From assembly GCA_964016885.1 (NCBI GenBank), contig OZ024741.1, positions 239,444,001 to 239,508,000 of the forward strand: DNA of 64,000 nt. The letters are read 5' to 3'. A model generated the notes under the pieces. The model was not told the origin of the DNA. It saw only the letters and a list, made by a program, of their open reading frames with translations, and ran no database searches. Below are positions 1,250 through 64,000 of the stretch, in pieces. This stretch comes from Eledone cirrhosa (taxonomy: Eukaryota). Within the stretch, counting starts at the first letter, position 1, and each line of letters opens with the position of its first letter. Made by a program: the position numbers and the translations under genes.

Positions 1250-1605
1250 TATTTAGTATGTACTAAGGCCATTCAATGTCTGACTGACTAATTCAGTAAA
1301 AATATATAATGATGTGTTATATTGAAATATAATAAACAAGAAAAATATAGTAAATACATCAAAGATGACAGCAAATATTTCCAGAAGTATGTTATATAAA
1401 TCTACAATTGAACATATATTCCTCTCCCTCACTGTTTCTTACAAAATACTTGATAGCCATGTTGGTAAAGGAGACATTCAATGAGAACTAACACAGATCT
1501 AATATGGCCACCATTACAATATTATATTTTGATGTTATAATATAGCTATATATGAGGTTATTATTTTACATGACTGGATAAATAATATAGAATATTAAAA
1601 CTTAC
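1250..1605 (-). promoter_or_regulatory. Conserved non-coding sequence at 5' end of intron 1 (gene off the left edge)
   Basis: Near-identical in all copies (e.g. cttacaaaatacttgatagccatgttggtaaag..cattcaatgagaactaacacagatctaatatggccaccattacaatatt), while sequence further into the intron diverges. Confidence 0.55.
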
Positions 1606-1990
1606 ATCATTGTGTAAAATCCTTTGTTATAAACTGTGAGTTGGTCCCAATGTTCTGTTGTTAATGGTTGTCTGTGTCACTGCTGCTATGGTGTGACAAT
1701 GGCTTCATGTTGATGGAATAGTGTTGGTAGTGAGTCAGTGGGAACCAGCAGTTCCCCTCAGTCTTCTGTGTATGTGTGATGTTTACTGAGTGTGAGTGTG
1801 TGTATGGGAGAGAGAGGTGGGGGAGGGTGATGATCACTCCAGCCTCACTCAGACTAGATGCGTTTCCCCTCACAGAGAAGAGGGAGAGAGAGAGAAGACA
1901 CAATATCAGCTCCACTAACAGTCAGCCATAATATGTCTATATAATACCAACATGTCTGATGTAGAGAGACTGACATAGAAATACTTAGAA
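1606..1990 (-). promoter_or_regulatory. Putative promoter + non-coding exon 1, copy 1 (gene off the left edge)
   Basis: ~385-bp block near-identical in six copies; ends in a - strand GTAAGT donor (GT at 1605-1604); contains TATA-like tattatatag, GA/CT tracts, TCAGT, GTAAACA and TGACTCA. Confidence 0.6.
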
Positions 1991-2423
1991 AATAGAGGTT
2001 ATATTAACAAAATGTGGTTGATGTTGTTAATGGTATTTAATATAAAATGTATTTAAAATATAAACAATAACAGTTAGTATGTGGTTGACCTAATTTTAAA
2101 CTAACTCTCCCACTCAGGGTATATTTAATAAAATCTACAGATGTTATGTTACCTCGCATCATTATTACAGTTTTGTCCATCTTTACATGTTAAATATATT
2201 TCCTCAAACATAAAATTTACAATATATTGTACTTATTATTTATCTATACCATAATTCAATTTATATTTTCAAGTATAAATTGTAAAGTCTATTATTATTG
2301 TAGAACATTCCCTATTATTATATTTACCTTAATATTATCAACAAACTAATATACTTCTGTAGTTTTAATTATTGTGTGGATCTTGAAGGTGATATTTCTG
2401 TTGTGTTAATTTCTCAGTCTGAC

Positions 2424-5400
2424 TTAACTAGCAACAACATCTGGTGTTGAAGGTAACTGTCTCTCTGGAGGTTTCACATATCTGTCTTGGTAATGGTCTC
2501 TCTCATTGTTACTTGACACATCAGGTGGGGCACCATAGATTCCTGAAACAAATACATCAACTCAACTTACCAAATAGTTCAGATAGACAGACAATAGGTA
2601 TTTACTGGCATTAGTTATCAATCATTTGTCTACTGCATTCATTGGTCTAATACAAAATAGCAATCATTAAAAAGGTTTTGACTGACCATCCCTAATACAC
2701 TGCAAAATCATAATCACATCAGTATGATAAATTCTTATAATGTAACAAACATGAGAACTGAAATTGCTTTACCTGACATTGCAGGTATTTCTTCATACTG
2801 TCTACTTGACCTTTCACTCCAGCATTGTCCACTACTCTTACGACTGGTCAATGTATCAGTGGGATAGTTAGCAGATGGTCTGTTGTCTCCATAAGATGTC
2901 ACCTCTATAGGTTGACTGTATTTCTGCTGTAAAATAAAGTTACAATACAATGTGTAAAAAGAAATCAAGTTTCTCTATGTACCTAAAATACAATAAATTT
3001 GTAGATATTGATGGGTATATTTATACTGTTGAATTATTGGACCTTTATATACAAAATTATCGATCCTTTTTATCTGACTATCTATCTATCATAACATAAA
3101 AAATATAACCAGTAAATGTTAACTAAAGCTGACAATCATCACAGAAATAATGTCAGCAACTTACTTGAATGGGTGCATGGTCGAGGCTCCAATTCCTCCC
3201 ACCTCTTCCATACAGCACTCCATATGGTCCACAATTTTACCAGCACTATATTACACGGTGTTGATGTGGATTGTGGCAGCCCAGAAATTTGCTACCTGGC
3301 ATATAGCAAATAAATATCTTATAGCTCACACTGGGGAAGAGAAGTGTACATGGCTTTTCTTAGACCTTTTATTGGGTTTAGTATAAGTTTATATTATGTT
3401 TGAATTTGTGGTGCAAGTGAATTTGTGAAGTAATAACAAGCAGGCAATTTGGCAGGTCTGTGTACAGAAGTACAGTTTATAGAGACATCTGAATAGTACA
3501 CAATAGGTATTCCCACAAAGGTAGCTAATATCCTATTAATATATGGTAACAATTCACATCTTAAAATGAATAGAATCATGCACAGCCACATATGAATGGA
3601 TCCTTTCATTCACTTTGTGAAGGCCTTGTACACGATTCATGTAAAAGCAAGTAACATAGAACAAGTAAATGTTGGATTATCATACGTTTGAAAATTTCAC
3701 AGGATACATTTTCATCTCCACATCATAATGATATTATTTCAACCAGATATTCTACACGACAAACCATTAATCAAACTGAAATTGTGAAATCTGAAATATT
3801 CAGATTTATCATTCTGAATTAAAGATGGAAAATATAAATAATAGACTTTACCTTTGTGGATTTCTGAAGAGATCTGTTCATTGTTGATGTCTTCCAGTCT
3901 TCAGGATAGTAATGGCTTCTAGACTGACTATATCTGTCTGATATCTCTCCTCGATTACCTGACATCACAGATACACTGTTGTTACCTTGATAGATCAACT
4001 GTCTCATCTCATTACGACATTGGTATGCCTGTTTCTCTTCTGTTGTTCTAGCTGAGTTATTTCTTACATTGTTACATCTCACAATACACAATGTTATAGA
4101 AACCACAATAGCTATAGATATTATCACAGCTGCTACTACAATGATAATCAACAATGTTGCATCTATTGTGTTATCAGTTGGTACATGGACAGCTGTGAAC
4201 ATTGGTGATGTCTTGTTACTAACAGTCAGTGTCAAAGAGACACTAGTTGTTGCTGACAGAACTGGAGTACCACTGTCTTTCACAACAAATTCCAGTTGAT
4301 ATGATCCGGCATCATTTTGGTAAACTGTACGAGAGTAAGATAAGACACCAGTGAATGAGTCCAGTTTAAATAATTGTCTCTCATTACCTGAAAGGATTTC
4401 ATACCTGAGAAAAGCATTCATGTGACTGTCTATATCAGAGGCTTTCAGAAGTGTGATGTCATTCTTACTTTGTGGATGATAGTGGACATCAAGAGTGAAA
4501 GGGTCAACACTAGGAAATGTAAAATATGGAGTATTATCATTTTTATCTAATACTTCCACTTCAACATTTACTGTGTTATTTAGAGATGGTGTTCCATTGT
4601 CTTTGACAAAAACCTCAAAGTCATAGAAATCTCTGTGTTCTCTGTCTAAAGACTGGTTTGTTGAAATAAAGCCAGAGTTGATAATCTGGAATGGTAGACG
4701 ATATTGGTGTTTATTTCTCAGATGATAACTTAATTCACCTCCCTTACCAGCATCTGGGTCTGTAGCATTGATAAAACCAATAGGGAAATTAGCTTTGTCA
4801 TTCTCATAGGTAAGGAACTTGAATGTATCTTTGGTAAAGTGTGGTTTTACATCATTCACATCTAACACTTGTATTGATAGATCTTTATCAGTTTTCAGAG
4901 AAGGTAATCCTTTATCTTGACAGGAGACAGTAAAGTGATAATGTTCCTGTGTCTCTCTGTCTACTGCTTTCTTTAGAACTATTTTATATTCTTTAGATCC
5001 CATTGACTGTAGTTTGAATGTATCATGTTTAATATTACAGCTGACCTCTCCATTGTGTCCAACATCATTGTCAGTGACCATCACATAAGCAATGAAACTA
5101 CCAACTTTGATATCTTCCAGAATGGTAGCTGTGTTGTGATTCTCTGTAGAAATATAGTTGACATCAATATTTGGAGGATTGTTGTGTTGGTTGATAACAT
5201 TTACCAGAACAGTTGCTATGGCACTGAGTGGTGGATTGCCATTATCTCTGGCTTCAATATATAATTTAAAAAATTCTTCATCAATTTGTGAAGATTTAGC
5301 TAAATATAATTTTCCTGTATTTTCATCTAAATCAAAATATTTTTTCACTTTCTCTGCAGTTTTTGTGGCAAAATAGAAAGATATTTTACCATTCCTACCA

Positions 5401-6200
5401 ATATCTAAATCATTGGCAGATAATGTCACTACTGGAATATTCTTTTTATGTTCATGTTCTATAGACACATTGTAGATACTTTGAGAAAATTCTGGTTTAT
5501 TATCATTTTCATCTTCTACAGATATTTTAACATTAAAAACACTTTGTTTTGGTGGAGTTCCTCCATCTTTAGCAATGACTTCAATATTGTAACTGTCTTT
5601 CTTTTCTCTGTCTAATTTCTTTTCTAAAATAATTTCTAATGTTGATATTCCACCAGCTTCCTTGGAAACACTTAATGCAAATTGCCCTTCATTATCTTTT
5701 AGTTCATATCTAATTAAGCTGTTCTCATATCCCACATCTTTGTCAACAGCATTGGGTATGGCCTTCTTCATACCATCTCGATCTCCTTCCCTAAACACTA
5801 GTGTAATGTCTTTCTCAGGAAACTCAGGTTGGTGGTCATTGATGTCTTCTATTATGACTTTAATTTTCAATATCTTCATAAATGTCTTGGATTTGTGAAC
5901 AGCAACTTTCACTATTTCAAAACATTCTTTCTCATAACTACACACAGACTCAGCATCCAATGTCTGAACAGTGTACAGTTTACCTGTTTTTGTCACATTA
6001 AACAATTGTTCTCCCTTTTGTTGTAGTTGACTAAATGTAATTAAATCCTTATTTTTTAAGAAGGAGCTATCTGATGTCTGTAAGTCAGTAGCAATGTCCC
6101 CTACATAAGTATAGGGATTTCTCTCTTCTTTAACATGGTATGTGATATGTTCACTTAGATAACAGTGGAAGAAAGTCAGTAAAATACACAGAGATAACAT
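2424..6200 (-). CDS. Protocadherin g1; coding exons 6200-3852, 2926/2923-2773, 2542-2424
   Basis: Signal peptide, six cadherin repeats (DxNDxxP, LDRE, AxDxG), EC1 C-x5-C, TM LLIIIVVAAVIISIAIVVSITLCIV. GT-AG introns of phase 0 then 1 join in frame to ...PDVVAS*. 5'UTR acceptor AG at 6250-6249. Confidence 0.95.
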
Positions 6201-8832: not shown

Positions 8833-11230
8833 CCCTGGGGAAGAATGTACCCCACAGCATAGGTTAGTTGTTAGTGATATCTCAGTAAGCAAGAGATGGA
8901 ATGAGACATATAGGAAGGTGTGGAGAAGAAAGGTCTGGAAACTAAAAGACCTTTCACTAAAATTCAAATTTAGGAAAGCCCTTCAAGATGTATATGACGA
9001 AAAAGAAGACGATTTAGAGACGTATGACATAGATAATAACTGGAAGTTCTTACGTGACAACTTGCTGAAGGCTACTGATGAAACCTGTGGCTGGAGCAGA
9101 GCTCCAACCAGACAGAGAGTGACCTGGTGGTGGAACAGCAGTGTAGATAAGGCTATTAGAGACAAAAGACTAGCATGGAAGGCTTGGAATAAGGGTGGGA
9201 GTAGGGAAGAATATACAGCCACTAAGAGAGAAGCTAGACGTCAGGTGTACTTAGCACGCAGGGAGGCAGAGAGTAGGAGGAGGTTTGCCAATGTTCTGCG
9301 ACGGGAAGATCAGAGGCGTGCGGTGTTCCACATTGCAAGGCAGTGTGTCAATGCAAATCAGGATGTTGTTGGTGATAAATGTGTCCGGGATGATGCCGGT
9401 GTACTTAGTGTCACGAATGACCAGAAAAAGGAGGCCTGGAAATGTCATTATGAGAGACTGATGAATGTGGAGAACGAATGGGAGAGAGAGAAATTACCCT
9501 TGGTAGATCCGACAGAGGGACCAGCTATTGAGATTGACGAATATAGGGTCCAAGAGGCGATTAGGGAAATGAAAAATGGTAAGGCGGCCGGACCATCGGG
9601 AATAGTTGCTGAGATGCTGAAGGCATCAGGGGACGTAGGCACTAAACTGGTTGCACGCATAATCAATCAGGCTATATATGGTGGTGTCATACCCAAAGAC
9701 TGGTGCAGCAGTATTCTCATAAATTGCTACAAAGGTAAAGGGGATGCTTTGGAGAGGAGCAATTATAGGGGTATAAAACTGATAGATCAGGTTATGAAAG
9801 TGGCAGAAAGGATTTTAGCACAACTAATTAGAGAAAGGGTCAAACTAGATGAGATGCAGTTTGGTTTTGTGCCTGGGAAGAGTACAACAGATGCCCTCTT
9901 CTTGGTGAGACAAATGCAAGAGAGGTTCTTAGAGAAGAATAAGCCACTATACTTAGCCTTTGTTGACCTAGAGAAGGCCTTTGATAGGGTACCCCGATCT
10001 GTCATCTGGTGGTCCCTAAGGAAGCTGGGTGTTGAGGAATGGCTTGTAAGGACAGTGCAAACTTTGTACAGAGGTACTCTCAGTAAAGTCAGGGTAGGAA
10101 TGGAGTTTAGTGAGGAATTCCAGATACAAGTAGGAGTACATCAGGGTTCGGTCCTCAGCCCGCTCTTGTTCATTATAGTCCTCCAAGCCATAACAGAGGA
10201 GTTTAAGACTGGCTGTCCATGGGAACTTCTCTATGCTGACGATCTGGCTCTTATGGCAGAATCAGTAGAGGAGCTAGAGAATAAATTCCGGCTATGGAAA
10301 CAGCAGTTGGAAGCAAGAGGACTGAGAGTAAATCTAGCTAAGACAAAAGTGTTGATGAGTAGAAAAGAGGACAAAACCCTGATTCCGTCAGGGAAATGGC
10401 CATGTTCGATATGCAGAAAAGGAACTGGCATAAATTCTATAAAATGCACACAATGTAGGTCCTGGGTACACAAGAGATGTAGCGGGATAGCAGGCAAACT
10501 AACAGGTAGGGAGAACTATGTATGCAGTAGATGTACAGGGAAATTAGACAGTAGAAGTCGCACTGATAGACACATTTTTCAAATGCGAGAGGGCGCTATA
10601 GAAGTGGTGGATAGCTTCCGGTACCTAGGAGATCAGATTAGCATGGGAGGAGGGTGTTCCGAGGCCATAGTATCTAGAATAAGGACGGGTTGGAAGAAGT
10701 TTAGGGAGCTGTTTCCTCTGTTGACGAAGAAGGGTTTCTCCCTGCGTACGAAAGGCCGGTTGTATGATGCCTGTGTGAGGAGCGCGATGCTGCATGGTAG
10801 TGAGACATGGGCAGCTACCGCAGAAGATATGCGACGGCTGGAGAGAAATGAGGCAAGCATGCGCCGTTGGATGTGCAGTGTAAATGTGCGTGAACGACCC
10901 AGCATAAATGTGTTGAGAGAGAAACTGTGTCTGAGAGGGATAGAATGTAGTGTACGGGAGAGGAGACTGAGGTGGTATGGACATGTGATGCGCATGGAGG
11001 ATGACCGATGGGTGAAGAAGTGCCAGGAAATGCCAGTTGAAGGAAGACGTGGTAGAGGTAGACCACGAAAAACATGGGTGGAGGTGGTGAGAACAGACCT
11101 CAGATCATTGAAGCTCACGGTGGAGATGACGAGGGACCGTGACGAGTGGAGAGATGCTGTGCTGAATAAGACCCGTCCCACCCTTGCAGGCAGGGAAAAG
11201 CGGACGTAAAATGATGATGATGATGATGAT
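8833..11230 (+). mobile_element. RTE-clade LINE, 5'-truncated, open ORF (end of endonuclease, RT, internal PHD finger), stop 11209
   Basis: Motifs [52 protein letters not shown]; (TGA)n tail. Confidence 0.93.
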
Positions 11231-15935: not shown

Positions 15936-18900
15936 TTAACTAGCAACAACATCTGGTGTTGAAGGTAACTGTCTCTCTGGAGGTTTCACATATCTGTCTT
16001 GGTAATGGTCTCTCTCATTGTTGCTTGACACATCAGGTGGGACACCATAGATTCCTGAAACAAGTACATCAACTCAACTTACTACATAGTTCATATAGAT
16101 GCCATATATTTTCTGACTGAAATTAGTAATCAATCTCTTGTTTATTATATTCACTAAGCTAAGATATTTAATGTTCTTAGATGTAATCATTTCCATGATA
16201 TAATGATTAAAGGTTGACTGAGTATATAAGTCAGTTCCGTTAATGGTAATACACCCAGTGTATGATGTATACAGTGGTATATCTGTGTAGAAATATATAT
16301 TCACTTATAAAATTTATAAAGATTGATAGAAATAATATCAGATTATTTCATAATTGTGAAAATTAGAAATTATGAAAATCAAATAATGAAATTAATAACA
16401 GATAAGGATAAATAAAATTGTTTTACCTGACATTGCTGGTATTTCTTCATACTGTCTACTTGACCTTTCACTCCAGCACTGTCCACTGCTCTTACGACTG
16501 GTCAATGTATCAGTGGGATAGTTAGAAGATGGCCTGTTGTCTCCATAAGATGTCACTTCTATAGGTTGACTATATTTCTGCAGGACAATATAATTACAAT
16601 AAAGAACATAAAGATATCATTTAGGACATTATACCTGAAATATACCCAATATCTAGATATTGATGTGTACATGTATACTATTGAAATATTGGACCATTAT
16701 GTATAAAAGAATCAGTTGTATAGATCCTGTTTATTTGATCATTTGTCATTATACCAAATAAAATGTATCCAGTACAGGTTACAAATAATCATTTCATAGC
16801 TTACTCTGGATATAAACGTAGATGTAGCTTTTTAGGTCTATGTTAATGCATATGATATAAGTGGATGAATAAGCATGTTTTCAGTGCAAAGTTGAATTCA
16901 TAGCAGGCAGGAAATTTGGCATGTTTATCAACAGAAGTAGTTTCCAAAACAATCTGAAATTGTGTAAAATAGATGATACAACAAAGTTAAAATCCTATTG
17001 ACAAAGTTAATCTTGCTATAAATTACTAGATTCTGGCTCCACAGTGTATGACTGCATCATTGATTCAAGGCACTCATTAAAATCCATTTCCAGAAAATAC
17101 CTTACCATTTGGATTATTGTGTTTCAAAAGTAAATCATCATAACCTTATTTTTTTCAACCAGATATATTCTATACTAAAACCAATCAGAAAGTAAACGGA
17201 CTACCTACATTGGTAATTTTAAACAGTAACTGCAGAGTTGAAAATATTCAGCTGTTTCATTTTTAATTAAATGTTATTCAACAGATAGAAAATATTAGAT
17301 AGAGCTTACCTTTGTGGATTTCTGAAGAGATCTGTTCATTGTTGATATCTTCCAGTCTTCAGGATAGTAATGACTTCTAGACTGACTATATCTGTCTGAT
17401 ATCTCTCCTCGATTACCTGACATCACAGATACACTGTTGTTACCTTGATAGATCAACTGTCTCATCTCATTACGACATTGGTATGCCTGTTTCTCTTCTG
17501 TTGTTCTAGCTGAGTTATTTCTTACATTGTTACATCTCACAATACACAATGTTATAGAAACCACAATAGCTATAGATACTATCACAGCTGCTACTACAAT
17601 GATAATCAATAATGTTGCATCTATTGTGTTATCAGTTGGTACATGGACAGCTGTGAACATTGGTGATGTCTTGTTACTAACAGTCAGTGTTAAAGAGACA
17701 CTAGTTGCTGCTGACAGAACTGGAGTACCACTGTCTTTCACAACAAACTCCAGTTGATATGATCCAGCATCATTTTGGTAAACTGTGCGAGAGTAAGATA
17801 AGACACCAGTGAATGAGTCCAGTTTAAATAACTGTTTCTCATTACCTGAAAGGATTTCATACCTGAGAAAAGCATTCATGTGACTGTCTATATCAGAGGC
17901 TTTCAGAAGTGTGATGTCATTCTTACTTTGTGGATGATAGTGTATATCAAGAGAGAAAGGATCAACACTAGGAAATGTAAAATATGGAGCATTATCATTT
18001 TTATCTAATACTTCCACTTCAACATTCACTGTGTTATTTAGAGATGGTGTTCCATTGTCTTTGACTAAAACCTCAAAGTCATAGAAATCTCTGTGTTCTC
18101 TGTCTAAAGACTGGTTTGTTGAAATAAAGCCAGAGTTGATAATCTGGAATGGTAGACGATATTGGTGTTTATTTCTCAGATAATAACTTAATTCACCTCC
18201 CTTACCAACATCTGGGTCTGTAGCATTGATAAAACCAATAGGGAAATTAGCTTTGTCATTCTCATAGGTAAGGAACTTGAATGTATCTTTGGTAAAGTGT
18301 GGTTTTACATCATTCACATCTAAGACTTGTATTGAGAGATCTTTATCAGTTTTCAGAGAAGGTAATCCTTTATCTTGACAAGAGACAGTAAAGTGATAAT
18401 GTTCCCGTGTCTCTCTGTCTACTGCTTTCTTTAGAACTATTTTATATTCCTTAGATCCCATTGACTGTAGTTTGAATGTATCATGTTTGATATTACAGCT
18501 GACTTCTCCATTGTGTCCAACATCATTGTCAGTGACCATCACATAAGCAATGAAACTACCAACTTTGATATCTTCCAGAATGGTAGCTGTGTTATGATTC
18601 TCTGTAGAAATGTAGTTGACATCAATATTTGGAGGATTGTTGTGTTGGTTGATAACATTTACCAGAACAGTTGCTATGGCACTGAGTGGTGGACTGCCAT
18701 TATCTCTGGCTTCAATATATAATTTTAAAAATTCTTCTTTATCAATTTCTGAAGATTTAGCTAAATATAACTTTCCTGTATTTTCATCTAAATTAAAGTA
18801 TCTTTTCATTTTCTCTGCAGTTTTCGTAGCAAAATAGAAAGATATTTTACCATTCCTGCCAATATCTAAATCATTGGCAGATAATGTCACAACTGGAATA

Positions 18901-19661
18901 TTCTTTTTATGCTTATGTTCTATAGAGACATTGTAGATACTTTGAGAAAACTGTGGTTTATTATCATTTTCATCTTCTACAGATATTTTAACATTCAAAA
19001 TACTTTGTTTTGGTGGAGTTCCTCCATCTTTAGCAATAATTTCAATATTGTAACTGTCTTTCTTTTCTCTGTCTAATTTATCTTCTAAAATAATTTCTAA
19101 CGTTGATATTCCACCTGCTTGTTTGGAAACACTTAATGAAAATTGTCCTTCATTATCAAGAAGCTCATATTTAATTAGACTGTTCTCATATCCCACATCT
19201 TTATCAACCGCATTGGGTATTGATCTCTTGGTGTTTTTACTATCAGTTTCAGAAAACTGAATATTGACTTGTTCTGTTGGAAACTCAGGTTGGTGGTCAT
19301 TGATGTCTTCTATTATGACTTTAATTTTCAATATCTTCATAAATGTCTTGGATTTGTGAACAGCAACTTTCACTATTTCAAAACATTCTTTCTCATAACT
19401 ACACACAGACTCAGCATCCAATGTCTGAACAGTGTACAGTTTACCTGTTTTTGTCACATTAAACAATTGTTCTCCCTTTTGTTGTAGTTGACTAAATGTA
19501 ATTAAATCCTTATTCTTTAAGAAGGAGCTATCTGATGTCTGTAAGTCAGTAGCAATGTCCCCTACATAAGTATAGGGATTACTCTCTTCTTTAACATGGT
19601 ATGTGATATGTTCACTTAGATAACAGTGGAAGAAAGTCAGCAAAATACACAGAAATAACAT
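15936..19661 (-). CDS. Protocadherin g2; coding exons 19661-17310, 16577-16427, 16054-15936
   Basis: Same architecture and intron phases as g1; 5'UTR acceptor AG at 19711-19710. Confidence 0.95.
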
Positions 19662-20988: not shown

Positions 20989-23900
20989 TAGGAATTTGAA
21001 ATTGGCTGTATCCAATAAATGGGATTTCAATGGAACATACTGAGGCAGAAAATTATTGATTTCTAACTTAGACACAAGGCTAGCAAATTCGGAGGAGGCC
21101 AAAGTTGATTAAATTAACCTAATACTTAACTGGCATTTTATTTTATTAACCCAGGAAGGATGAACGGTAAAGTTAACCTCAGAAATGATTCATTTGGAAA
21201 TAAATAGGAATAGTTTGAATTATCTCCCCTCTATATATACTACTAAGTTACATGTTTAACAAAACAAAGCTTACACTATAATATAGCTTGACAATAGATA
21301 TATATTGACTTATTACTGTTAATATTAAATTTATATTTTAAACTCAAAAACATTTTATGATAATATTTTTGTTCAATAAATCTCTTCCCAAAAATAAAAC
21401 ATACTATTTTGTAATCAACTCTACCTGATGTCAAGTTATAATCTTAACATCTTGGATATCTCCAATCTTTAGCTAGAACTAATTTTGCATATAAAACCAA
21501 ATATATTTTTAAAATAAATATCAAATTTTACATTATGACAATGCAAAATATATTTGCAGCAATAAAAATAATTGGACAAGATGCATTTGTTTCCTATACT
21601 TGAAATGTAACATTAGGTGAAAAAAATTTAAAACAAATTCTTATAAATTTGTTTGCAATAACTTATTCAAAAAGAGGAATAAAATAATTGGCACAAGATT
21701 TCTAAATCATATTGTTATTTAGTCTTCTAGATGAATATTTTTTATATCAAACTTACAAGATAGATGTTATTTAACACTATCTAGTAGATATGTCATCAAA
21801 AGCATTCCAGTCATGACCACAGCCCCAATTTATTGGTCATCTAAGTGATACAACAAAAATATGACAGATCAGATGCGTGTATGAATAGATAACAGGCAAC
21901 AATATCAATATTCTTAAATATTTAAGGCCAAAAATTCTGCATTTCTTTGATAAATTAACCTATAATAATTTTTTTAAAACATGGTTGGCAATAGTTGAAG
22001 TATCAAATATTTTGTATATGTTAACACAAATGTATCAAGAAACATTTATGAATAAGCAAATCATCCACTGATATATATAAAGCATATTTGTAACTTAAAT
22101 CATTCAAATGAATAATTTACAAAAAAGAAAGAAATAAGCCTAATTTTAACATGAAATTATAGGAATCGGTAGATTTATACATACTGAAGATTTACAAACA
22201 TTCACAGATTTCATGTATACACATACACAATCTATATTTAGTATGTACTAAGGCCATTCAATGTCTGACTGACTAATTCAGTAAAAATATATAATGATGT
22301 GTTATATTGAAATATAATAAACAAGAAAAATATAGTAAATACATCAAAGATGACAGCAAATATTTCCAGAAGTATGTTATATAAATCTACAATTGAACAT
22401 ATATTCCTCTCCCTCACTGTTTCTTACAAAATACTTGATAGCCATGTTGGTAAAGAAGACATTCAATGAGAACTAACACAGATCTAATATGGCCACCATT
22501 ACAATATTATATTTTGATATTATAATATAGCTATATATGAGGTTATTATTTTACATGACTGGATAAATAATATAGAATATTAAAACTTACATCATTGTGT
22601 AAAATCCTTTGTTATAAACTGTGAGTTGGTCCCAATGTTCTGTTAATGGTTGTCTGTGTCACTGCTGCTATGGTGTGACAATGGCTTCATGTTGATGGAA
22701 TAGTGTTGGTAGTGAGTCAGTGGGAACCAGCAGTTCCCCTCAGTCTTCTGTGTATGTGTGATGTTTACTGAGTGTGAGTGTGTGTATGGGAGAGAGAGGT
22801 GGGGGAGGGTGATGATCACTCCAGCCTCACTCAGACTAGATGCGTTTCCCCTCACAGAGAAGAGGGAGAGAGAGAGAAGACACAATATCAGCTCCACTAA
22901 CAGTCAGCCATAATATGTCTATATAATACCAACATGTCTGATGTAGAGAGACTGACATAGAAATACTTAGAAAATAGAGGTTATATTAACAAAATGTGGT
23001 TGATGTTGTTAATGGTATTTAATATAAAATGTATTTAAAATATAAACAATAACAGTTAGTATGTGGTTGACCTAATTTTAAACTAACTCTCCCACTCAGG
23101 GTATATTTAATAAAATCTACAGATGTTATGTTACCTCGCATCATTATCAGTTTTGTCCATCTTTACATGTAAAATATATTTCCTCAAACATAAAATTTAC
23201 AATATATTGTACTTATTATTTATCTATACCATAATTCAATTTATATTTTCAAGTATAAATTGTAAAGTCTATTATTATTGTAGAACATTCCCTATTATTA
23301 TATTTACCTTAATATTATCAACAAACTAATATACTTCTGTAGTTTTAATTATTGTGTGGATCTTGAAGGTGATATTTCTGTTGTGTTAATTTCTCAGTCT
23401 GACTTAACTAGCAACAACATCTGGTGTTGAAGGTAACTGTCTCTCTGGAGGTTTCACATATCTGTCTTGGTAATGGTCTCTCTCATTGTTACTTGACACA
23501 TCAGGTGGGGCACCATAGATTCCTGAAACAAATACATCAACTCAACTTACCAAATAGTTCAGATAGACAGACAATAGGTATTTACTGGCATTAGTTATCA
23601 ATCATTTGTCTACTGCATTCATTGGTCTAATACAAAATAGCAACCATTAAAAAGGTTTTGACTGACCATCCCTAATACACTGCAAAATCATAATCACATC
23701 AGTATGATAAATTCTTATAATGTAACAAACATGAGAACTGAAATTGCTTTACCTGACATTGCAGGTATTTCTTCATACTGTCTACTTGACCTTTCACTCC
23801 AGCATTGTCCACTACTCTTACGACTGGTCAATGTATCAGTGGGATAGTTAGCAGATGGTCTGTTGTCTCCATAAGATGTCACCTCTATAGGTTGACTGTA

Positions 23901-26160
23901 TTTCTGCTGTAAAATAAAGTTACAATACAATGTGTAAAAAGAAATCAAGTTTGTCTATGTACCTAAAATACAATAAATTTGTAGATATTGATGGGTATAT
24001 TTATACTGTTGAATTATTGGACCTTTATATACAAAATTATCGATCCTTTTTATCTGACTACTATCTATCATAACATAAAAAATATAACCAGTAAATGTTA
24101 ACTAAAGCTGACAATCATCACAGAAATAATGTCAGCAACTTCTTACTTGAATGGGTGCATGGTCGAGGCTCCAATTCCTCCCATCTCTTCCATACAGCAC
24201 TCCATATGGTCCACAATTTTACCAGCACTATATTACACGGTGTTGATGTGGATTGTGGCAGCCCAGAAATTTGCTACCTGGCATATAGCAAATAAATATC
24301 TTATAGCTCACACTGGGGAAGAGAAGTGTACATGGCTTTTCTTAGACCTTTTATTGGGTTTAGTATAAGTTTATATTATGTTTGAATTTGTGGTGCAAGT
24401 GAATTTGTGAAGTAATAACAAGCAGGCAATTTGGCAGGTCTGTGTACAGAAGTACAGTTTATAGAGACATCTGAATAGTACACAATAGGTATTCCCACAA
24501 AGGTAGCTAATATCCTATTAATATATGGTAACAATTCACCCTTAAAATGAATAGAATCATGCACAGCCACATATGAATGGATCCTTTCATTCACTTTGTG
24601 AAGGCTTTGTACACGATTCATGTAAAAGCAAGTAACATAGAACAAGTAAATGTTGGATTATCATACGTTTGAAAATTTCACAGGATACATTTTCATCTCC
24701 ACATCATAATGATATTATTTCAACCAGATATTCTACACTACAAACCATTATTCAAACAGAAATTGTGAAATCTGAAATATTCAGATTTATCATTCTGAAT
24801 TAAAGATGGAAAATATAAATAATAGACTTTACCTTTGTGGATTTCTGAAGAGATCTGTTCATTGTTGATGTCTTCCAGTCTTCAGGATAGTAATGGCTTC
24901 TAGACTGACTATATCTGTCTGATATCTCTCCTCGATTACCTGACATCACAGCTACACTGTTGTTACCTTGATAGATCAACTGTCTCATCTCATTACGACA
25001 TTGGTATGCCTGTTTCTCTTCTGTTGTTCTAGCTGAGTTATTTCTTACATTGTTACATCTCACAATACACAATGTTATAGAAACCACAATAGCTATAGAT
25101 ATTATCACAGCTGCTACTACAATGATAATCAACAATGTTGCATCTATTGTGTTATCAGTTGGTACATGGACAGCTGTGAACATTGGTGATGTCTTGTTAC
25201 TAACAGTCAGTGTTAAAGAGACACTAGTTGTTGCTGACAGAACTGGAGTACCACTGTCTTTCACAACAAACTCCAGTTGATATGATCCGGCATCATTTTG
25301 GTAAACTGTACGAGAGTAAGATAAGACACCAGTGAATGAGTCCAGTTTAAATAATTGTCTCTCATTACCTGAAAGGATTTCATACCTGAGAAAAGCATTC
25401 ATGTGACTGTCTATATCAGAGGCTTTCAGAAGTGTGATGTCATTCTTACTTTGTGGATGATAGTGGACATCAAGAGAGAAAGGGTCAACACTAGGAAATG
25501 TAAAATATGGAGCATTATCATTTTTATCTAATACTTCCACTTCAACATTTACTGTGTTATTTAGAGATGGTGTTCCATTGTCTTTGACAAAAACCTCAAA
25601 GTCATAGAAATCTCTGTGTTCTCTGTCTAAAGACTGGTTTGTTGAAATAAAGCCAGAGTTGATAATCTGGAATGGTAGACGATATTGGTATTTATTTCTC
25701 AGATGATAACTTAATTCACCTCCCTTACCAGCATCTGGGTCTGTAGCATTGATAAAACCAATAGGGAAATTAGCTTTGTCATTCTCATAAGTAAGGAACT
25801 TGAATGTATCTTTGGTAAAGTGTGGTTTTACATCATTCACATCTAACACTTGTATTGAGAGATCTTTATCAGTTTTGAGAGGAGGTAATCCTTTATCTTG
25901 ACAGGAGACAGTAAAGTGATAATGTTCCTGTGTCTCTCTGTCTACTGCTTTCTTTAGAACTATTTTATATTCTTTAGATCCCATTGATTGTAGTTTGAAT
26001 GTATCATGTTTAATATTACAGCTGACTTCTCCATTGTGTCCAACATCATTGTCAGTGACCATCACATAAGCAATGAAACTACCAACTTTGATATCTTCCA
26101 GAATGGTAGCTGTGTTGTGATTCTCTGTAGAAATATAGTTGACATCAATATTTGGAGGAT
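20989..26160. repeat. Segmental duplicate of 1-~5180
   Basis: Near base-for-base identity, including introns and intergenic DNA, ending at the EC3/EC4 boundary. Confidence 0.9.
22591..22972 (-). promoter_or_regulatory. Putative promoter + non-coding exon 1 of g2
   Basis: Conserved block; GTAAGT donor at 22590; predicted intron 19710-22590. Confidence 0.6.
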
Positions 26161-27187
26161 TGTTCTGTTCACTGATAACATTTATCTGAATTATTGCAAG
26201 GGAACTGAGAGGAGAACTGCCATCATCTTTGGCTTCCACATATAATTTAAATTTCTGTTTTTTTCCAATTTCTAATGATTTTTTCAAGTATAATTTTCCA
26301 GTAATTTCATTCAAACGAAAATTATTTCTTGACTTTACATCTGTTTTCTGACTGAAATAGAAATATATTTTACCATTCCTACCAATATCTAAATCATTGG
26401 CAGATAATGTCACTATTGGAATATTTTTTTTATGGTCATGTTCCATAGAAACATTATAAATAGTCTGGGTAAATTGTGGTGTGTTATCATTTTCATCTTC
26501 TACAGATATTTTAACATTTAAAATACTTTGTTTTGGTGCAGTTCCTCCATCTTTTGCAATGACCTCAATATTGTAGCTGTCTTTATTTTCTCTGTCTAAT
26601 TTCTTTTCTAAAATGATACCTAATGTTGATATTTCATCAGCTAATTTTGATTGAGATAAGGAAAAATGTTCATCATTATTTTTTAATTCATATTTAATTA
26701 AACTGTTCTTAAAACCCACATCCTTATCAATGGCACTGGGTATTGTTTTCTTCATACCATCTCGATCTCCTTCACGAAACACTAAACTGATTTCTTTCTC
26801 AGGAAACTCAGGTTGGTGGTCATTGATGTCTTCTATTATGACTTTAATTTTTAAAATCTTCATAAATGTCTTGGATTTGTGAACAGCAACTTTAATTATT
26901 TCAAAACATTCTTTCTCATAACTACACACAGACTCAGCATCCAATGTCTGAACAGTGTACAGTTTACCTGTTTTTGTCACATTGAACAATTGTTCTCCCT
27001 TTTGTTGTAGTTGACTAAATGTAATTAAATCCTTATTCTTTAAGAAGGAGCTATCTGATGTCTGTAAGTCAGTAGCAATGTCCCCTACATAAGTATAGGG
27101 ATTTCTCTCTTCTTTAACATGGTATGTGATATCTTCACTCAGATAACAGTGGAAGAAAGTCAGTGAAATACACAGAAATAACAACAT
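23404..27187 (-). CDS. Protocadherin g3; coding exons 27187-24833, 23906/23903-23753, 23522-23404
   Basis: Same architecture; most divergent EC3; 5'UTR acceptor AG at 27244-27243. Confidence 0.95.
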
Positions 27188-29685: not shown

Positions 29686-32600
29686 TTAACTAGCAACAAC
29701 ATCTGGTGTTGAAGGTAACTGTCTCTCTGGAGGTTTCACATATCTGTCTTGGTAATGGTCTCTCTCATTGTTGCTTGACACATCAGGTGGGACACCATAG
29801 ATACCTGAAATAAGTACATCAACTCAACTTACCACATAGATCACAGACAGACAATAGATATTTACTGACATTAGTTATCAATCTTTTGTCAACTGCATAC
29901 ACTGGACTAAGATATAAAATGATCATTAAAGAAGTATTTTATCAATCCTTAGAAATCATCATCAGATGAGGCTAATAATTGTTTCTACTTTAGGCACAAG
30001 GCCAGCAATTACCCAGTGCATTACTGGATGAGGCTAATAATGTCATACGTATCTGTTTGATATATACATCATCAGTGTAATGTATGTTTTTTCATGCTGT
30101 CATTAGTGGGATGAGTTCAGACAGAGATCTACAGGCAGATGCCCTTCTTGATAGTGAACCCAACACTTTTTGTAAGTAAGGTACAATTCTTTGCACATCT
30201 AAGCACTGTTCAACTAGAGCTTTCTATACATGGAACATAAACAAATATCCCCAAAAGCAATGAGTCCATGAAATGAGAAGAAACAAACACAAACACATAT
30301 AAACACATAAAAAACATATATAAAGGCTTCTTTATGTTTCTGCCTACCAAATTCATTCATAAGGCATTGTTGATCTGAGGCTATAGTAGAAGACATTTGT
30401 ATAATGTGCAGTGGGATAGAATCTAACACCAAATGGTTGCCAAAAAGTTAATAGCTAATTTTCATAATATTGATAAATAATCGTTTCTTAATCACTAGCA
30501 TTGGACATTATTTAATGAATGAATGCATGAGTGAAATTATTTTACCTGACATTGCTGGTATTTCTTCATACTGTCTACTTGACCTTTCACTCCAGCACTG
30601 TCCGCTACTCTTATGACTGGTTAATGTATCAGTGGGATAGTTAGAAGATGGTCTGTTGTCTCCATAAGATGTCACCTCTATAGGTTGACTGTATTTCTGC
30701 TGTAAAATATTGTAACAAGTTAGAGAGCAAGGATTGAATTTTTGAATGTAGACTTAAAATATCTTCAATTTCTAGCTAAAAATGGGTGTTAAAATATTGG
30801 ACCAATATAAACAAAAACATCAATTCTATAGATCCTCATCTGACCACTTTCATTCATACCATAGAAAATGTATCTAGTACAATTTATTCTGAGGATTTAG
30901 ATGTTGCAAAAAGTGATTTTAAAGCTTAACATATTTCGGAAAGATATCTAGTAATACAAGCTATGTCAATCAAAGGGTTGAAAGGATTCATTGTTGTGTC
31001 AACAACATAATCTTACATGTAATGGTGCAACAATAAAACGTATCCAGTACACCCAAATAAAGTGGTTGGTGATAAAAAAGGAAACCAGATGTTGCAACAA
31101 TATCAAAATTGGAATATATACTAGCAAGATATGGTTCCTGGGTCATCTGAGGGAACAGTAGTTCAGATTAAATACTGACTTGGTCTGTAATAACCCATTT
31201 AACCTATCTTATCAAGGGAAAATAGGCATTAAATGATAATTGTTTCTACTTTTGGCACAAGGCCAGCAATTATCCCAGTGTATTACGACCCCGTAAGGAT
31301 GAAAGGCAATGTTAACCTCGGCGGGATTTGAACTAAGTTCCTAAAGGGAAGTAACTCTTTCCTGCTAAGCATGGTGTCCGACCCTCTACCGATACCGCCA
31401 ATCCACCGCCCTTTGCTGTAAATGATAATGGTGATCCCACAGAAGAAAAAAATAAACAAAGCACTTTAGGCCTTCCTTTATTGGTGATAGTCAAAATTTA
31501 TATTGTGAGGGAGTTGTTGGTACAAAATTGGTGTCATAGTAGTCGGGGAAATTCACTGGTTACTATGCAGAAATACATTTTACAAAGGTATCAGAATTGT
31601 AAAACATAGTGTGGGTCCACAATGGTAGCTAAAATCCAATTGAGAAGTGTTAAGTTATTCTAGCTAATAATTAAGTGATTCTGGTTCTACAATATATGAA
31701 TACAACATTGATCCTCATGTCAGTTGCCTTGTTGGGAATTCATTGACCAACAAGTTACAAAGAGCAACTCATAGATTACCTAACAATTGAAAAGAGTACA
31801 AAATACATTTATATTTCTAAATTGTGATACATTATCAACCAGATATTCTAAAAAAAAAAATATTCACGATTAAAAAGTGGACATAAATTGGTAATTTAAG
31901 AAGTAAACATGAAATTTATGATATTCAATTATATTGTTCTTAATTTACAGATAGTGAAAAAACAAATCGTTTACCTTTGTGGATTTTTGAAGAGATCTGC
32001 TCATTGTTGATGTCTTCCAGTCTTCAGGATAGTAATGACTTCTAGATTGACTATATCTGTCTGATATCTCTCCTCGATTACCTGACATCACAGATACACT
32101 GTTGTTACCTTGATAGATCAACTGTCTCATCTCATTACGACATTGGTATGCCTGTTTCTCTTCTGTTGTTCTAGCTGAGTTATTTCTCACATTGTTACAT
32201 CTCACAATACACAATGTTATAGAAACCACAATAGCTATAGATACTATCACAGCTGCTACTACAATGATAATCAACAATGTTGCATCTATTGTGTTATCAG
32301 TAGGTACATGAACAGCTGTGAACATTGGTGATGTCTTGTTACTAACAGTCAGTGTTAAAGAGACACTAGTTGTTGCTGACAGAACTGGAGTACCACTGTC
32401 TTTCACAACAAACTCCAGTTGATATGATCCAGCATCATTTTGGTAAACTGTGCGAGAGTAAGATAAGACACCAGTGAATGAGTCCAGTTTAAATAATTGT
32501 CTCTCATTACCTGAAAGGATTTCATACCTGAGAAAAGCATTCATGTGACTGTCTATATCAGAGGCTTTCAGAAGTGTGATGTCATTCTTACTTTGTGGAT

Positions 32601-34323
32601 GATAGTGTATATCAAGCGTGAAAGGGTCAACACTAGGAAATGTAAAATATGGAGCATTATCATTTTTATCTAATACTTCCACTTCAACATTCACTGTGTT
32701 ATTTAGAGATGGTGTTCCATTGTCTTTGACAAAAACCTCAAAGTCATAGAAATCTCTGTGTTCTCTGTCTAAAGATTGGTTTGTTGAAATAAAGCCAGAG
32801 TTGATAATCTGGAATGGTAGACGATATTGGTGTTTATTTCTCAGATGATAACTTAATTCACCTCCCTTACCAACATCTGGGTCTGTAGCATTGATAAAAC
32901 CAATAGGGAAATTAGCTTTGTCATTCTCATAGGTAAGGAACTTGAATGTATCTTTGGTAAAGTGTGGTTTTACATCATTCACATCTAACACTTGTATTGA
33001 GAGATCTTTATCAGTTTTGAGAGGAGGTAATCCTTTATCTTGACAGGAGACAGTGAAGTGATAATGTTCCTGTGTCTCTCTGTCTACTGCTTTCTTTAGA
33101 ACTATTTTATATTCTTTAGATCCCATTGACTGTAGTTTGAATGTATCATGTTTAATATTACAGCTGACCTCTCCATTGTGTCCAACATCATTGTCAGTGA
33201 CCATCACATAAGCAATGAAACTACCAACTTTGATATCTTCCAGAATGGTAGCTGTGTTGTGATTCTCTGTAGAAATATAGTTGACATCAATATTTGGAGG
33301 ATTGTTGTGTTGGTTGATAACATTTACCAGAACAGTTGCTATGGCACTGAGTGGTGGATTGCCATTATCTCTGGCTTCAATATATAATTTAAAAAATTCT
33401 TCATCAATTTCTGAAGATTTAGCTAAATATAATTTTCCTGTATTTTCATCTAAATCAAAATATTTTTTCACTTTCTCTGCAGTTTTTGTGGCAAAATAGA
33501 AAGATATTTTACCATTCCTACCAATATCTAAATCATTGGCAGATAATGTCACTACTGGAATATTCTTTTTATGTTCATGTTCTATAGACACATTGTAGAT
33601 ACTTTGAGAAAATTCTGGTTTATTATCATTTTCATCTTCTACAGATATTTTAACATTAAAAACACTTCGTTTTGGTGGAGTTCCTCCATCTTTAGCAATG
33701 ACTTCAATGTTGTAACTGTCTTTCTTTTCTCTGTCTAATTTCTTTTCTAAAATAATTTCTAATGTTGATATTCCACCAGCTTCCTTGGAAACACTTAATG
33801 CAAATTGCCCTTCATTATCTTTTAGTTCATATCTAATTAGGCTGTTCTCATATCCCACATCTTTGTCAACCGCATTGGGTATGGCTTTCTTCATACCTCT
33901 ACCATCTCCTTCCCTAAACACTAGTGTAATGTCTTTCTCAGGAAACTCAGGTTGGTGGTCATTGATGTCTTCTATTATGACTTTAATTTTCAATATCTTC
34001 ATAAATGTCTTGGATTTGTGAACAGCAACTTTAACTATTTCAAAACATTCTTTCTCATAACTACACACAGACTCAGCATCCAATGTCTGAACAGTGTACA
34101 GTTTACCTGTTTTTGTCACATTAAACAATTGTTCTCCCTTTTGTTGTAGTTGACTAAATGTAATTAAATCCTTATTTTTTAAGAAGGAGCTATCTGATGT
34201 CTGTAAGTCAGTAGCAATGTCCCCTACATAAGTATAGGGATTTCTCTCTTCTTTAACATGGTATGTGATATGTTCACTTAGATAACAGTGGAAGAAAGTC
34301 AGTAAAATACACAGAGATAACAT
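29686..34323 (-). CDS. Protocadherin g4; coding exons 34323-31975, 30699/30696-30546, 29804-29686
   Basis: Same architecture; ectodomain nearly identical to g1; 5'UTR acceptor AG at 34373-34372. Confidence 0.95.
30310..30440 (-). mobile_element. Degraded SINE head fragment in a g4 intron
   Basis: ctatagtagaagacatttg..gtgcagtgggatagaatc resembles the reverse complement of a tRNA-derived SINE head; absent from the other paralogs. Confidence 0.45.
31235..31415 (-). mobile_element. tRNA-derived SINE with Nin/Deu-like core
   Basis: - strand: A-box-like tggcggtatcgg, B-box agttcaaatccc, core gcctttcatccttacggggtcg; fragments also at ~29975-30030 and 62650-62790. Confidence 0.7.
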
Positions 34324-34596: not shown

Positions 34597-34685
34597 ATAC
34601 ACATACACATATATATATATATACACACATACATACATACACATATATATATATACACATACATACATACACATATATATATATA

Positions 34686-36581
34686 CAACGTGAGGACCAG
34701 AAACAGGAGGTATTCAAGATTGCGAGGCAGTGTGTCAGAGATAGTTGTGATGTCATTGGAGAGAAGTGTATCCGGAATGATAAAGGTGAGCTTGCCCTCA
34801 CAAGTGCTGAGAAGAAAGATGCATGGAAGAGTCATTATGATAGATTACTAAATGAGGAGAATGCATGGGAAGAAGAGACCCTACCCCACGTAGACCCTAT
34901 AGAGGGACCAGCAGTACAAGTCAGCGGCAGCGTAGTAAGTAAGGCAATCAGAGATATGAAGATAGGGAAGGCAACCAGTCCATCGGGTATAGCTGCCGAG
35001 ATGCTGAAGGCATCTGGGTCTGTAGGTCACACTATAACCACACGTATTGTTAACCAGGTAATACTAGAGGGGGCCATACCAAAAGATTGGTGCAGTAGCA
35101 TCATTGTCAACTGCTACAAAGGTAAAGGCGATGCACTAGATAGAGGAAACTATAGAGGTATAAAGTTGATGGACCAGGTCATGAAAGTAACAGAAAGAGT
35201 TATAGCACAGCTGATTAGGGACCGGGTGAATATAGACGAGATGCAATTTGGGTTTGTACCAGGGAAAGGCACCACTGATGCGCTCTTCCTTGTGAGGCAA
35301 TTACAGGAAAAGTACCTAGCTAAAAGTAAGCCACTCTACTTGGCATTTGTCGACCTTGAGAAAGCCTTTGACAGAGTTCCACGTGCAGTAATCTGGTGGG
35401 CTCTTAGAAAACTAGGAGTAGATGAATGGCTTGTGAAAGCGGTACAAGCCATGTATAGGGGAGCAGTCAGCAAAGTTAGGATTGGCAATGAGTATAGCGA
35501 GGAATTTAGCGTACAGGTTGGGGTCCACCAGGGCTCTGTTCTTAGCCCTCTCCTGTTCATCATAGTCCTGCAGGCAATAACGGAGGAGTTTAAGACCGGA
35601 TGCCCATGGGAACTCCTGTATGCTGATGACCTCGCACTCATAGCTGAATCTATGGTAGAACTAGAGAATAAATTCCAAACCTGGAAGCAGGGACTAGAGA
35701 GAAAGGGCCTCAAAGTCAACATGACAAAGACTAAGGTCCTTATAAGTAGACGAGAAAACAGAACCCAGATCCCCTCAGGGAAATGGCCTTGCTCAGTATG
35801 TAGGAAAGGTGTAGGTAGGAACTCCATTCTTTGCCCCAAATGCAAACAATGGGTACACAAGAGATGTAGCGGGATCTCAGGAAGCTTAATTAAGAATGTA
35901 GGATTCACATGCAGCAGCTGTGCTGAAACAGCAAGCAAACAGCCACAGGAAACAAGTACCACCAATCTCTGGGAGGGCCCTGTAGAAACAGTAGACAGCT
36001 TCTGCTACCTAGGTGACCGAATTAGCAACGGAGGTGGGTGCTCAGAAAGTACAATAACTAGGGTAAGAACGGGATGGAAGAAGTTTAGGGAACTACTACC
36101 ACTGCTAGCTGCAAAAGGCTTCTCCCTCAGAATGAAAGGCAGACTGTATGATGCGTGTATCCGAACAGCGATGTTGCATGGTAGTGAGACCTGGGCGCTG
36201 AAGGTGGAAGACTTACGTAGATTAGAGAGAAACGAAGCCTGCATGCTCCGATGGATGTGTAACAGTAATATACGTGAACGACAAAGCATAAATGAATTGA
36301 GAGAGAGACTGAGCATAAGAGGAATCAAATGCTGCGTGCAGGAGAGGCGGTTACGCTGGTATGGACATGTGATGCGTATGAAGGATGACAGCTGCATAAA
36401 AAGGTGCAGAGCACTAGAAGTTGATGGAAACCGCGGAGTGGGGAGACCCAAGATGACTTGGGATGAGGTGATAAAAGCCGACCTTACCCAACTACACCTC
36501 TCAAAGTCAATGACACACGACCGTGACTTCTGGCGTCACGCAGTAATACAGGGTACCCGACCTCCCATGGGTACATGCTGA
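34686..36581 (+). mobile_element. Second RTE-clade LINE (different subfamily), 5'-truncated, open RT ORF with PHD finger
   Basis: Same RT motifs as the 8833 element but clearly divergent; no stops over ~630 codons. Confidence 0.93.
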
Positions 36582-63834: not shown

Positions 63835-64000
63835 GTTCAATATTCGGTATGTACTAAGAAATTAGAATGTCTGACTGAATAATTCAGTAAAAATATATAA
63901 TGGTGAGTTATGTTAAAATATAATAAACAATATAAATATAGTAAATATATCAAAGATGACAGCAAATATTTTGAGAAGTATGTTATATAAAACTACAATT
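63835..64000 (-). promoter_or_regulatory. Conserved intron-1 5' element of g6 (exon 1 predicted just beyond the window)
   Basis: Homologous to 1250-1410. Confidence 0.55.

Follow-up and report, generated by a model that had tools for sequence, protein, structure and literature searches.

The gene layout of octopod clustered protocadherins has been described previously (PMC9068888), and six genes with this layout were identified on the minus strand of a 64,000-nucleotide stretch of Eledone cirrhosa DNA (contig OZ024741.1, positions 239,444,001 to 239,508,000; hereafter referred to as the window). As deduced from the open reading frames (ORFs), splice sites, and Pfam matches, the cadherin repeats and the transmembrane (TM) helix of each gene reside in one large exon followed by short 3' exons, and the genes form a same-strand tandem array without shared constant exons. 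They have the subfamily, the tail join, and the head-to-tail duplication of full genes in common with the known octopod clusters, but represent a separate clade in quick trees computed for the extracellular cadherin (EC) repeats 4 to 6 and for the tail. The subject of this study is the cytoplasmic tail of these proteins, in which the sequence Y-E-[ET]-[IL]-P (hereafter, the Tyr motif) represents a candidate phosphotyrosine docking site for SH2 domains, a reading to which we assign a probability of roughly 0.65.

Vertebrate alpha/gamma and delta protocadherins provide the first point of comparison, as their tails couple to tyrosine-kinase and actin signaling. FAK, Pyk2, and WAVE have been listed as tail partners, Src being absent from the interactor table of the cited excerpt (PMC7339444), and Ret phosphorylation has been described (PMC3601302). 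Vertebrate clusters share constant exons, whereas each octopod gene possesses its own, apparently conversion-homogenized copy. Regarding cephalopods, it was reported that vertebrate tail motifs are lacking and that different intracellular pathways are suggested; the octopus motif table of that paper (Table S2), in the part cited, comprises EC1, EC5, EC6, TM, and PP1 motifs only and does not include tail motifs (PMC6339937). Among the matches listed in a literature search, no paper on SH2/SH3 ligands in cephalopod protocadherin tails was found, an earlier mention being possible. What appears to be new here is a conserved candidate signaling motif in octopod protocadherin tails, which bears on the open question of how cephalopod protocadherins signal. 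Present in about four fifths of the long-tailed octopod paralog clusters, it provides a single residue for mutagenesis and a single phosphopeptide as bait. If docking of Src-family kinases proved true, octopus and vertebrate clusters would have converged on a tyrosine-kinase output by different genomic routes, adding to the EC2-3 diversity and the uniform tail that both share; in biochemical terms, linear SH2/SH3 motifs on an adhesion receptor are nothing unusual.

At the level of linear motifs, p130Cas and FAK/Pyk2 resemble the window tail in featuring an SH2-type Tyr motif and a class I RxLPxxP-type motif within a disordered stretch, with YxxP sites nearby. In contrast to these scaffolds, the octopod protein is a transmembrane receptor without sequence homology to them, and the motif order is reversed. 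The class I motif of FAK reads RALPSIP, a sequence that the literature look-up did not show. The polyomavirus middle T-type Src SH2 ligand pYEEI, from whose hamster version the probe EPQ(pY)EEIPIYL presumably originates, has six identical residues (QYEEIP) in common with the window tail, whereas the octopod family consensus is broader (YEEL, YETL) and phosphorylation of the octopod Tyr is putative. An earlier note on this DNA had described the tail as a Src/Abl signaling scaffold; its observation was confirmed, and its interpretation appears partly supported by the sequence comparisons reported below.

Conservation of the Tyr motif among octopod paralogs

For the comparison with distant paralogs, 117 named octopod proteins were grouped into 41 clusters at 50% tail identity, and the 34 clusters with a tail of at least 135 residues, including that of the window, were used with one row each, seven short-tail clusters being dropped. 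Expected cluster counts were derived from 2000 within-tail shuffles in an alignment-free test. YE[ET][IL] was present in 26 out of the 34 clusters (0.24 expected; shuffle maximum 3), and the exact form YEEI in 14 (0.04 expected). For a second set, clustering relied on the first 85 tail residues (exon A only) of 244 out of 245 named octopod proteins and resulted in 49 clusters, 40 of them long-tailed. Among these 40, the Tyr motif was found in 32, the class I SH3-type sequence [RK]xLPxxP (hereafter, the proline motif) in 16, and both in 11; the Tyr motif occurred alone in 21, the proline motif alone in five, and neither in three.

Since the paralog clusters are related and do not represent independent trials, the argument is based on the contrast between the motif and its decayed flanks. 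Over the 33 clusters other than that of the window, identity to the reference amounted to 85% (Y), 82% (first E), 61% (second E), 39% (I, with Leu in 52%), and 67% (P), compared to a mean of 22.5% for the 43 exon-B columns ahead of the motif, and Y and E are the two best-kept columns past the first 12 juxtamembrane residues. Exchanges in the second set (L in 17 and I in 15 clusters at +3; E in 23 and T in nine at +2) seem to stay within SH2-compatible residues. YEEI was found in all 35 proteins of the window's own tail cluster, and the Argonauta paralogs P0008 and P0032, with tail branches of 0.58 and 0.64, keep YEEIPA together with a YV[KN]PP...[RK]xLPxxP block. The concern raised in the earlier note, that the motifs might be no more conserved than flanking tail residues in distant paralogs, does not apply to the YEEI-type site. 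Judging from this contrast, octopod protocadherins have a linear motif under selection towards the end of exon B, Y-E-[ET]-[IL]-P, which is very probably functional at the protein level.

That the motif lacks a protein function and owes its persistence to shared descent, gene conversion, or a constraint on the nucleotide sequence, e.g., a GAAGAA splice enhancer near the exon-B donor, is highly improbable. Conversion is evident within the subfamily, the clusters are non-independent samples, and the two Glu codons read GAAGAA approximately 20 nt from the exon-B donor, in agreement with the enhancer consensus. However, flank identity has decayed to 22%, while Y, both E, and P positions stand at 61-85%, the YETL form disrupts GAAGAA and keeps Y-E-x-L, the I/L exchange is a protein-level pattern, and the nonsynonymous and synonymous differences (pN/pS) in exon B amount to 0.012/0.149.

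Docking partners, the proline motif, and competing explanations

The features of a Src SH2 ligand are found in the tail, namely Y-E-E-[IL] in a cytoplasmic and conserved stretch that is unstructured in the model available. In the AlphaFold model of the relative P0006 (47-row alignment), residues 715-876 are unstructured with a confidence score (pLDDT) below 50, which is consistent with, but no proof of, a disordered tail. For the Src SH2 domain, about equal IC50 values of 0.5 µM (pYEEI) and 0.8 µM (pYEEL) were determined, both being the best ligands of the measured series, and EPQ(pY)EEIPIYL was the probe of that assay (PMC2888578). A Src-family kinase as the SH2 partner is tentatively proposed, at somewhat less than even odds.

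Another SH2 protein (Csk, Syk/Shark, SHP2, Cbl, or an adaptor) reading the phosphotyrosine, with an unrelated SH3 adaptor on the proline motif and the tail serving as a generic or inhibitory scaffold instead of a Src activator, is considered unlikely. It would account for the YETL form in nine out of 32 clusters, for the uncoupling of the two motifs in the second set, and for the YD[VIAD]P sequence kept by the paralogs with a KPLP-type proline motif, which hints at Crk/Nck-type adaptors. The ranking of YEEI and YEEL as Src SH2 ligands stands against it, as does the lack of an immunoreceptor tyrosine-based activation motif (ITAM, YxxI/L-x(6-8)-YxxI/L); this candidate was rejected because the next Tyr, although located at ITAM spacing, is followed by Pro at +3. 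In its favor, vertebrate alpha/gamma protocadherins inhibit Pyk2 instead of activating a kinase (PMC8527176).

The proline motif was detected in 12 out of the 34 clusters (0.19 expected) and in 33 of the 35 close relatives, so that the class I SH3 motif claimed in the earlier note is kept above chance, albeit mostly with Lys and in about a third of the clusters only. One of the two divergent Argonauta paralogs reads RKLPSPP, near RPLPSPP of p130Cas. In a second paralog group, the tail ends with [YF]xKPLPx[VIL]P, 77-133 residues past YEEL or YETL. This group (P0072, P0073, P0085, P0087, P0098, P0100, P0105, P0112, P0118, and kin) features a fuller Cas-like set, consisting of a membrane-near YD[VIAD]P, YE[ET]L, and a W-N-L-P...S-F-T-x-[YF]-x-K-P-L-P end; YD[VIAD]P was present in 12 of the 34 clusters (0.10 expected). 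In a quick, unrooted EC4-TM tree, the window subfamily was placed amid Tyr-only paralogs and apart from the KPLP-type group, conversion being a disturbing factor in ectodomain trees, and RQLPSTP of the window may represent a separate acquisition or a remodeled remnant. RQLPSTP also contains PxTP, which we take to be a proline-directed kinase pattern.

Concerning the YxxP sites, 25 of the 34 clusters contained at least one (12.1 expected), and [YF]xKP was found in 12 (1.5 expected). Among the 35 close relatives, YV[KN]P was kept in 33 and KYS[QE]P in 32, whereas at the start of exon C the Tyr was kept in 34, YxxP in 16, and [IVL]YxxP in four, an inserted Gly disrupting this site in Octopus proteins. 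The Abl substrate IYxxP postulated in the earlier note was rejected, [IVL]YxxP being present in two out of 34 clusters (2.2 expected) besides the four close relatives. KYSQP was likewise discarded as a conserved site, its Y being retained in 12 and its P in seven of the 33 other clusters, below the adjacent T and S. Unlike vertebrate protocadherins, the window tail has no match to WIRS, i.e., Phi-x-T/S-F in the tail (PMC10318009); with no match in gene 1 and matches in four of 34 clusters (4.8 expected), this candidate was dismissed, and in the second paralog group a strict match was found in only two out of 11 cases.

A ligand that engages both sites should activate a Src-family kinase, as it competes with the internal contacts of the enzyme (PMC8527176), and engagement at two sites has precedents in Pyk2/FAK (PMC8527176) and p130Cas (PMC8542790). 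The mechanism proposed here starts from what the sequence shows: each gene carries private exons B and C whose copies conversion apparently keeps nearly identical within a species, leaving a varied EC2-3 region on a quasi-constant tail in the subfamily. Adhesion would cluster the receptors, a tyrosine kinase would phosphorylate the motif Tyr, and a Src-family SH2 domain would bind the resulting pYEEI or pYEEL. Less firmly, the downstream class I ligand (RQLPSTP, or KPLPxxP in the second paralog group) might be recognized by an SH3 domain, either that of this kinase or one from an adaptor, and this co-engagement could add avidity and displace autoinhibition. In about half of the paralog clusters, the Tyr motif stands without the proline motif. 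The SH3 ligand would be optional, the YxxP sites secondary, and the Abl-type site incidental.

Several observations weigh against SH2 docking or against its Src-specific form. A genome-encoded Cys replaces the motif Tyr in two paralogs (P0074 and the P0358 cluster), in one cluster together with RPLPPIP, and P0075 reads Phe-Asp-Asp-Leu-Pro at this site. In most cases the Tyr is preceded by G-[HLQ], and in the window by Arg-Gln, whereas good Src substrates have an acidic or aliphatic context at this place. RxLPxxP with Arg was confined to one of the 34 clusters, the window's own (0.09 expected), and additionally the P0358 cluster in the larger set, all others having Lys; four out of the 12 clusters with the SH3-type motif lacked the exact Tyr motif, and the orthologous pair P0031 and P0033, both close relatives, lost the SH3-type block. 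Moreover, RxLPxxP is not Src-specific, being a high-affinity motif for the nephrocystin SH3 domain as well (PMC4380453). Both motifs occurred together in eight of the 34 clusters at a spacing of 35-133 residues, so that a fixed FAK/Cas-like geometry was not supported: an SH3 site shortly N-terminal of the SH2 site was not found, the spacing is free, and in most paralogs one of the two sites is missing. Three scattered YxxP in the window tail likewise differ from the substrate domain of p130Cas with its 15 YxxP (PMC8542790). Lys in place of Arg, free spacing, and single-site clusters weaken a Src-specific two-site switch, and activation of a Src-family kinase through both sites is doubtful.

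Furthermore, the core Y-x-x-[IL] is also compatible with YxxPhi, recognized by the mu subunits of adaptor protein (AP) complexes, and with the LC3-interacting region (LIR) of Atg8-family proteins. Such a phosphorylation-independent signal would set the surface level and turnover of the protocadherin, the proline motif binding endocytic SH3 proteins, and is judged improbable here. P0075, with F in place of the Tyr and the acidic +1/+2 and L-P positions kept, fits this explanation, and vertebrate clustered protocadherin tails are known to govern trafficking (PMC3601302). In atlas searches, 'cadherin Y-type LIR motif' (PF01049) was the first match, its scores of 0.78 and 0.79 remaining below the level that shuffled proteins reach a third of the time. 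LIRs exchange W, F, and Y freely, whereas the motif Tyr was replaced by Phe once and by Trp never in 33 clusters. Glu at +1 and Pro at +4, reference-identical in 27 and 22 of the 33 other clusters, are held more tightly than YxxPhi or LIR require, and the Phi position is I or L only. This substitution pattern appears to fit SH2 recognition better than either trafficking signal.

Motif conservation across cephalopods, which the earlier note had proposed as a check, was not supported by the one cuttlefish-type clade sampled, and this is a further point against the SH2 reading. The non-octopod comparison was made on a single cuttlefish-type clade: 119 proteins were gathered around a squid-like record, those placed in a tree formed one clade with six named cuttlefish proteins, and 20 had tails of at least 135 residues (19 clusters). 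In these, the exon-B region is recognizable but the homologous Tyr is gone; YE[ET][IL] occurred in one of the 19 clusters, and there upstream, while [RK]xLPxxP was found in two (0.23 expected). Y[QER]EI was detected in nine of the 19 clusters (0.05 expected) about 40 residues upstream (P0122, P0142, P0149, P0160, P0164, P0165, P0197, P0204, and P0230); it apparently spans the exon A/B junction and is a possible analog of the octopod motif. A tail search with P0119 yielded seven proteins among 42 candidates, all from octopods, exons B and C had no match among PDB chains at E up to 10, and giant cadherins dominated the matches of a representative-library search for tail relatives.

Homogenized tails, splicing, and a possible editing site

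The six genes agree with each other in 164 out of 171 tail columns. Within gene pairs 1/3 and 2/5, identity reaches 99-100%, both introns included, while the remaining pairs show 53-77% identity in aligned intron columns versus 95-99% in the tail exons. The synonymous difference for the six pairs among genes 1, 2, 4, and 6 amounted to 0.30 in EC2 and 0.17 in EC3, as compared to 0.02-0.08 in EC1, EC4-6, and the TM/juxtamembrane region, 0.15 in exon B, and 0.06 in exon C. In quick trees of 39 subfamily proteins, EC2-3 mixed three species groups (10 label changes), whereas EC4-6 and the tail required three changes; the mean tail identity, calculated without four divergent rows, was 95-98% within and 87-90% between species groups. 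Since EC2-3 lineages cross species while tails group by species, the lineages predate speciation, and the tails have undergone concerted evolution. This sequence pattern points to gene conversion, by which homogenization of cephalopod protocadherin clusters was already suggested to occur (PMC9068888). Concerted evolution is domain-restricted, EC1 also being nearly uniform within the window and EC2-3 diverse. The motif retention in six genes on which the earlier note relied is real, as YEEI, RQLPSTP, KYSQP, RYVKP, and IYG[A/V]P (IYGAP in genes 1 and 3; IYGVP in genes 2, 4, 5, and 6) are each present in all six; however, because the tails are homogenized copies, it carries no evidential weight and was rejected as an argument for function.

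The motifs named in that note were found where it had placed them on the minus strand (Table 1), and the distance from the Tyr of YEEI to the Arg of RQLPSTP, given there as approximately 35 residues, was measured as 35. Shuffling this single tail 20,000 times, with patterns picked after the fact, resulted in P values of 0.0015 (YEEI), 0.0017 (RxLPxxP), 0.03 (three YxxP, 0.76 expected), and 0.09 ([IVL]YxxP). The spliced-tail model was likewise borne out: in each of the six genes, exons B and C are bounded by GT-AG splice sites and the reading frame is maintained, and the same join is present in annotated Octopus and Argonauta proteins, whose models presumably rest on RNA reads. A tandem CAG/CAG acceptor (2924-2929 in gene 1) would give rise to isoforms with and without one Gln in genes 1, 3, 4, and 6, and RefSeq isoform pairs of O. 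sinensis differ by exactly this Gln. Genes 2 and 5 lost the first AG (16578-16583 and 51351-51356), which is predicted to move the start of their exon B 3 nt downstream and to remove the Gln; for the computations, in which one column is affected, the Gln was retained in all six genes. An extra coding exon was rejected both for intron 1, which is barely alignable across lineages, and for the non-coding block downstream of the stop codon, which has no long open frame on the gene strand; all annotated relatives end at the same stop codon as the window genes.

Many paralog clusters include short-tailed RefSeq/GenBank models without the exon-B motif (one out of 55 in the window subfamily), which possibly reflect regulated inclusion or incomplete models. 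A [DS]-S-G-x-G-W-S stretch ahead of the Tyr motif (2816-2836) recurs in octopod and cuttlefish-type tails (P0073, P0090, P0093, P0121, P0145, and P0364). It may resemble a beta-TrCP degron or the vertebrate delta-protocadherin motif CM1; enrichment of the degron pattern in the octopod tails was not significant (four of 34 clusters versus 1.7 expected).

Editing is reported to be enriched in cephalopod protocadherins (PMC6339937; bioRxiv 10.1101/714394). The O. vulgaris protein QBA31128.1 (P0058), probably part of the transcriptome data deposited with PMC6339937, is identical to the genome-derived O. vulgaris/O. sinensis sequence P0414 except for one out of 852 residues, Tyr843, which is replaced by Cys. 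Tyr843 is the Tyr of YEELP, is also Tyr in O. bimaculoides and Argonauta, and its change to Cys is of the A-to-G type. RNA editing of the motif Tyr is thus possible from this single case, noticed post hoc, with polymorphism or error as alternatives. A similar Tyr change was absent from two further such proteins (P0498 with one other difference, P0358 with nine), and the best double-stranded RNA partners around the Tyr codon in the six genes, at -25 to -30 kcal/mol, were no better than control windows. The most far-reaching scenario is considered quite improbable: an octopod 'constant region' without shared exons, in which conversion-homogenized private tails with a two-site Src-activating module would relay different EC2-3 codes to one kinase output, switched by inclusion or omission of exon B and by A-to-I recoding of Tyr to Cys, with the squid/cuttlefish Y[QE]EI at the exon A/B junction being independent.

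The six-gene array and its surroundings

According to the ORF list, the six tandem ORFs encode approximately 800 residues each, comprising a signal peptide, six cadherin repeats, a TM helix, and about 80 tail residues. Their nearest proteins are 'protocadherin beta-15-like' of Octopus sinensis, O. vulgaris, O. bimaculoides, and Argonauta hians, with approximately 90% identity over EC6-TM-tail; within the incirrate octopods, the genera Argonauta and Octopus are placed in separate families. The coordinates of all features are summarized in Table 1.

Table 1. Protocadherin genes, tail exons, and motifs in the window (position 1 is its first nucleotide).
Feature	Position	Strand	Evidence and remarks
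Gene 1, exon A (signal peptide, six cadherin repeats, TM helix 4089-4154, first ~80 tail residues)	3852-6200	-	ORF list, ATG, TM, Pfam cadherin, donor
Gene 1, intron 1 (925 nt, phase 0)	2927-3851	-	GT...AG, tandem CAG/CAG acceptor
Gene 1, tail exon B (154 nt; holds KYSQP and YEEI)	2773-2926	-	same exon in annotated relatives
Gene 1, intron 2 (230 nt, phase 1)	2543-2772	-	
Gene 1, last coding exon C (119 nt including stop)	2424-2542	-	
KYSQP, YxxP site 1	2909-2923	-	motif scan
YEEIP, octopod-wide Y-E-[ET]-[IL]-P motif, candidate SH2 ligand	2783-2797 (YEEI 2786-2797)	-	
IYGAP, YxxP site 2	2526-2540	-	motif scan
RYVKP, YxxP site 3	2469-2483	-	motif scan
RQLPSTP, putative class I SH3-type ligand	2442-2462	-	motif scan
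Near-invariant non-coding block 3' of the gene 1 stop, copy after all six genes	1281-2075	-	probably 3' untranslated region
Gene 2	15936-19661	-	exon A 17310-19661, exon B 16427-16580 (acceptor probably 16577), exon C 15936-16054
Gene 3	23404-27187	-	exon A 24833-27187, exon B 23753-23906, exon C 23404-23522
Gene 4	29686-34323	-	exon A 31975-34323, exon B 30546-30699, exon C 29686-29804
Gene 5	50706-54434	-	exon A 52083-54434, exon B 51200-51353 (acceptor probably 51350), exon C 50706-50824
Gene 6	58379-62092	-	exon A 59744-62092, exon B 58871-59024, exon C 58379-58497

The non-coding downstream block comprises approximately 800 near-invariant nucleotides, separated from the stop codon by about 250 nt of divergent sequence, and is probably an element of the 3' untranslated region or a conversion tract; no Rfam match was obtained in the window. 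Positions 63837-64000 match the downstream block of gene 1, and a seventh gene probably lies past the right edge of the window with its 3' end touching this edge. The genes lie among long microsatellites and two long intergenic ORFs, antisense to the cluster, at approximately 8864-11209 and 34680-36581 of the plus strand, which resemble long interspersed nuclear elements and feature reverse transcriptase and PHD-finger Pfam matches.

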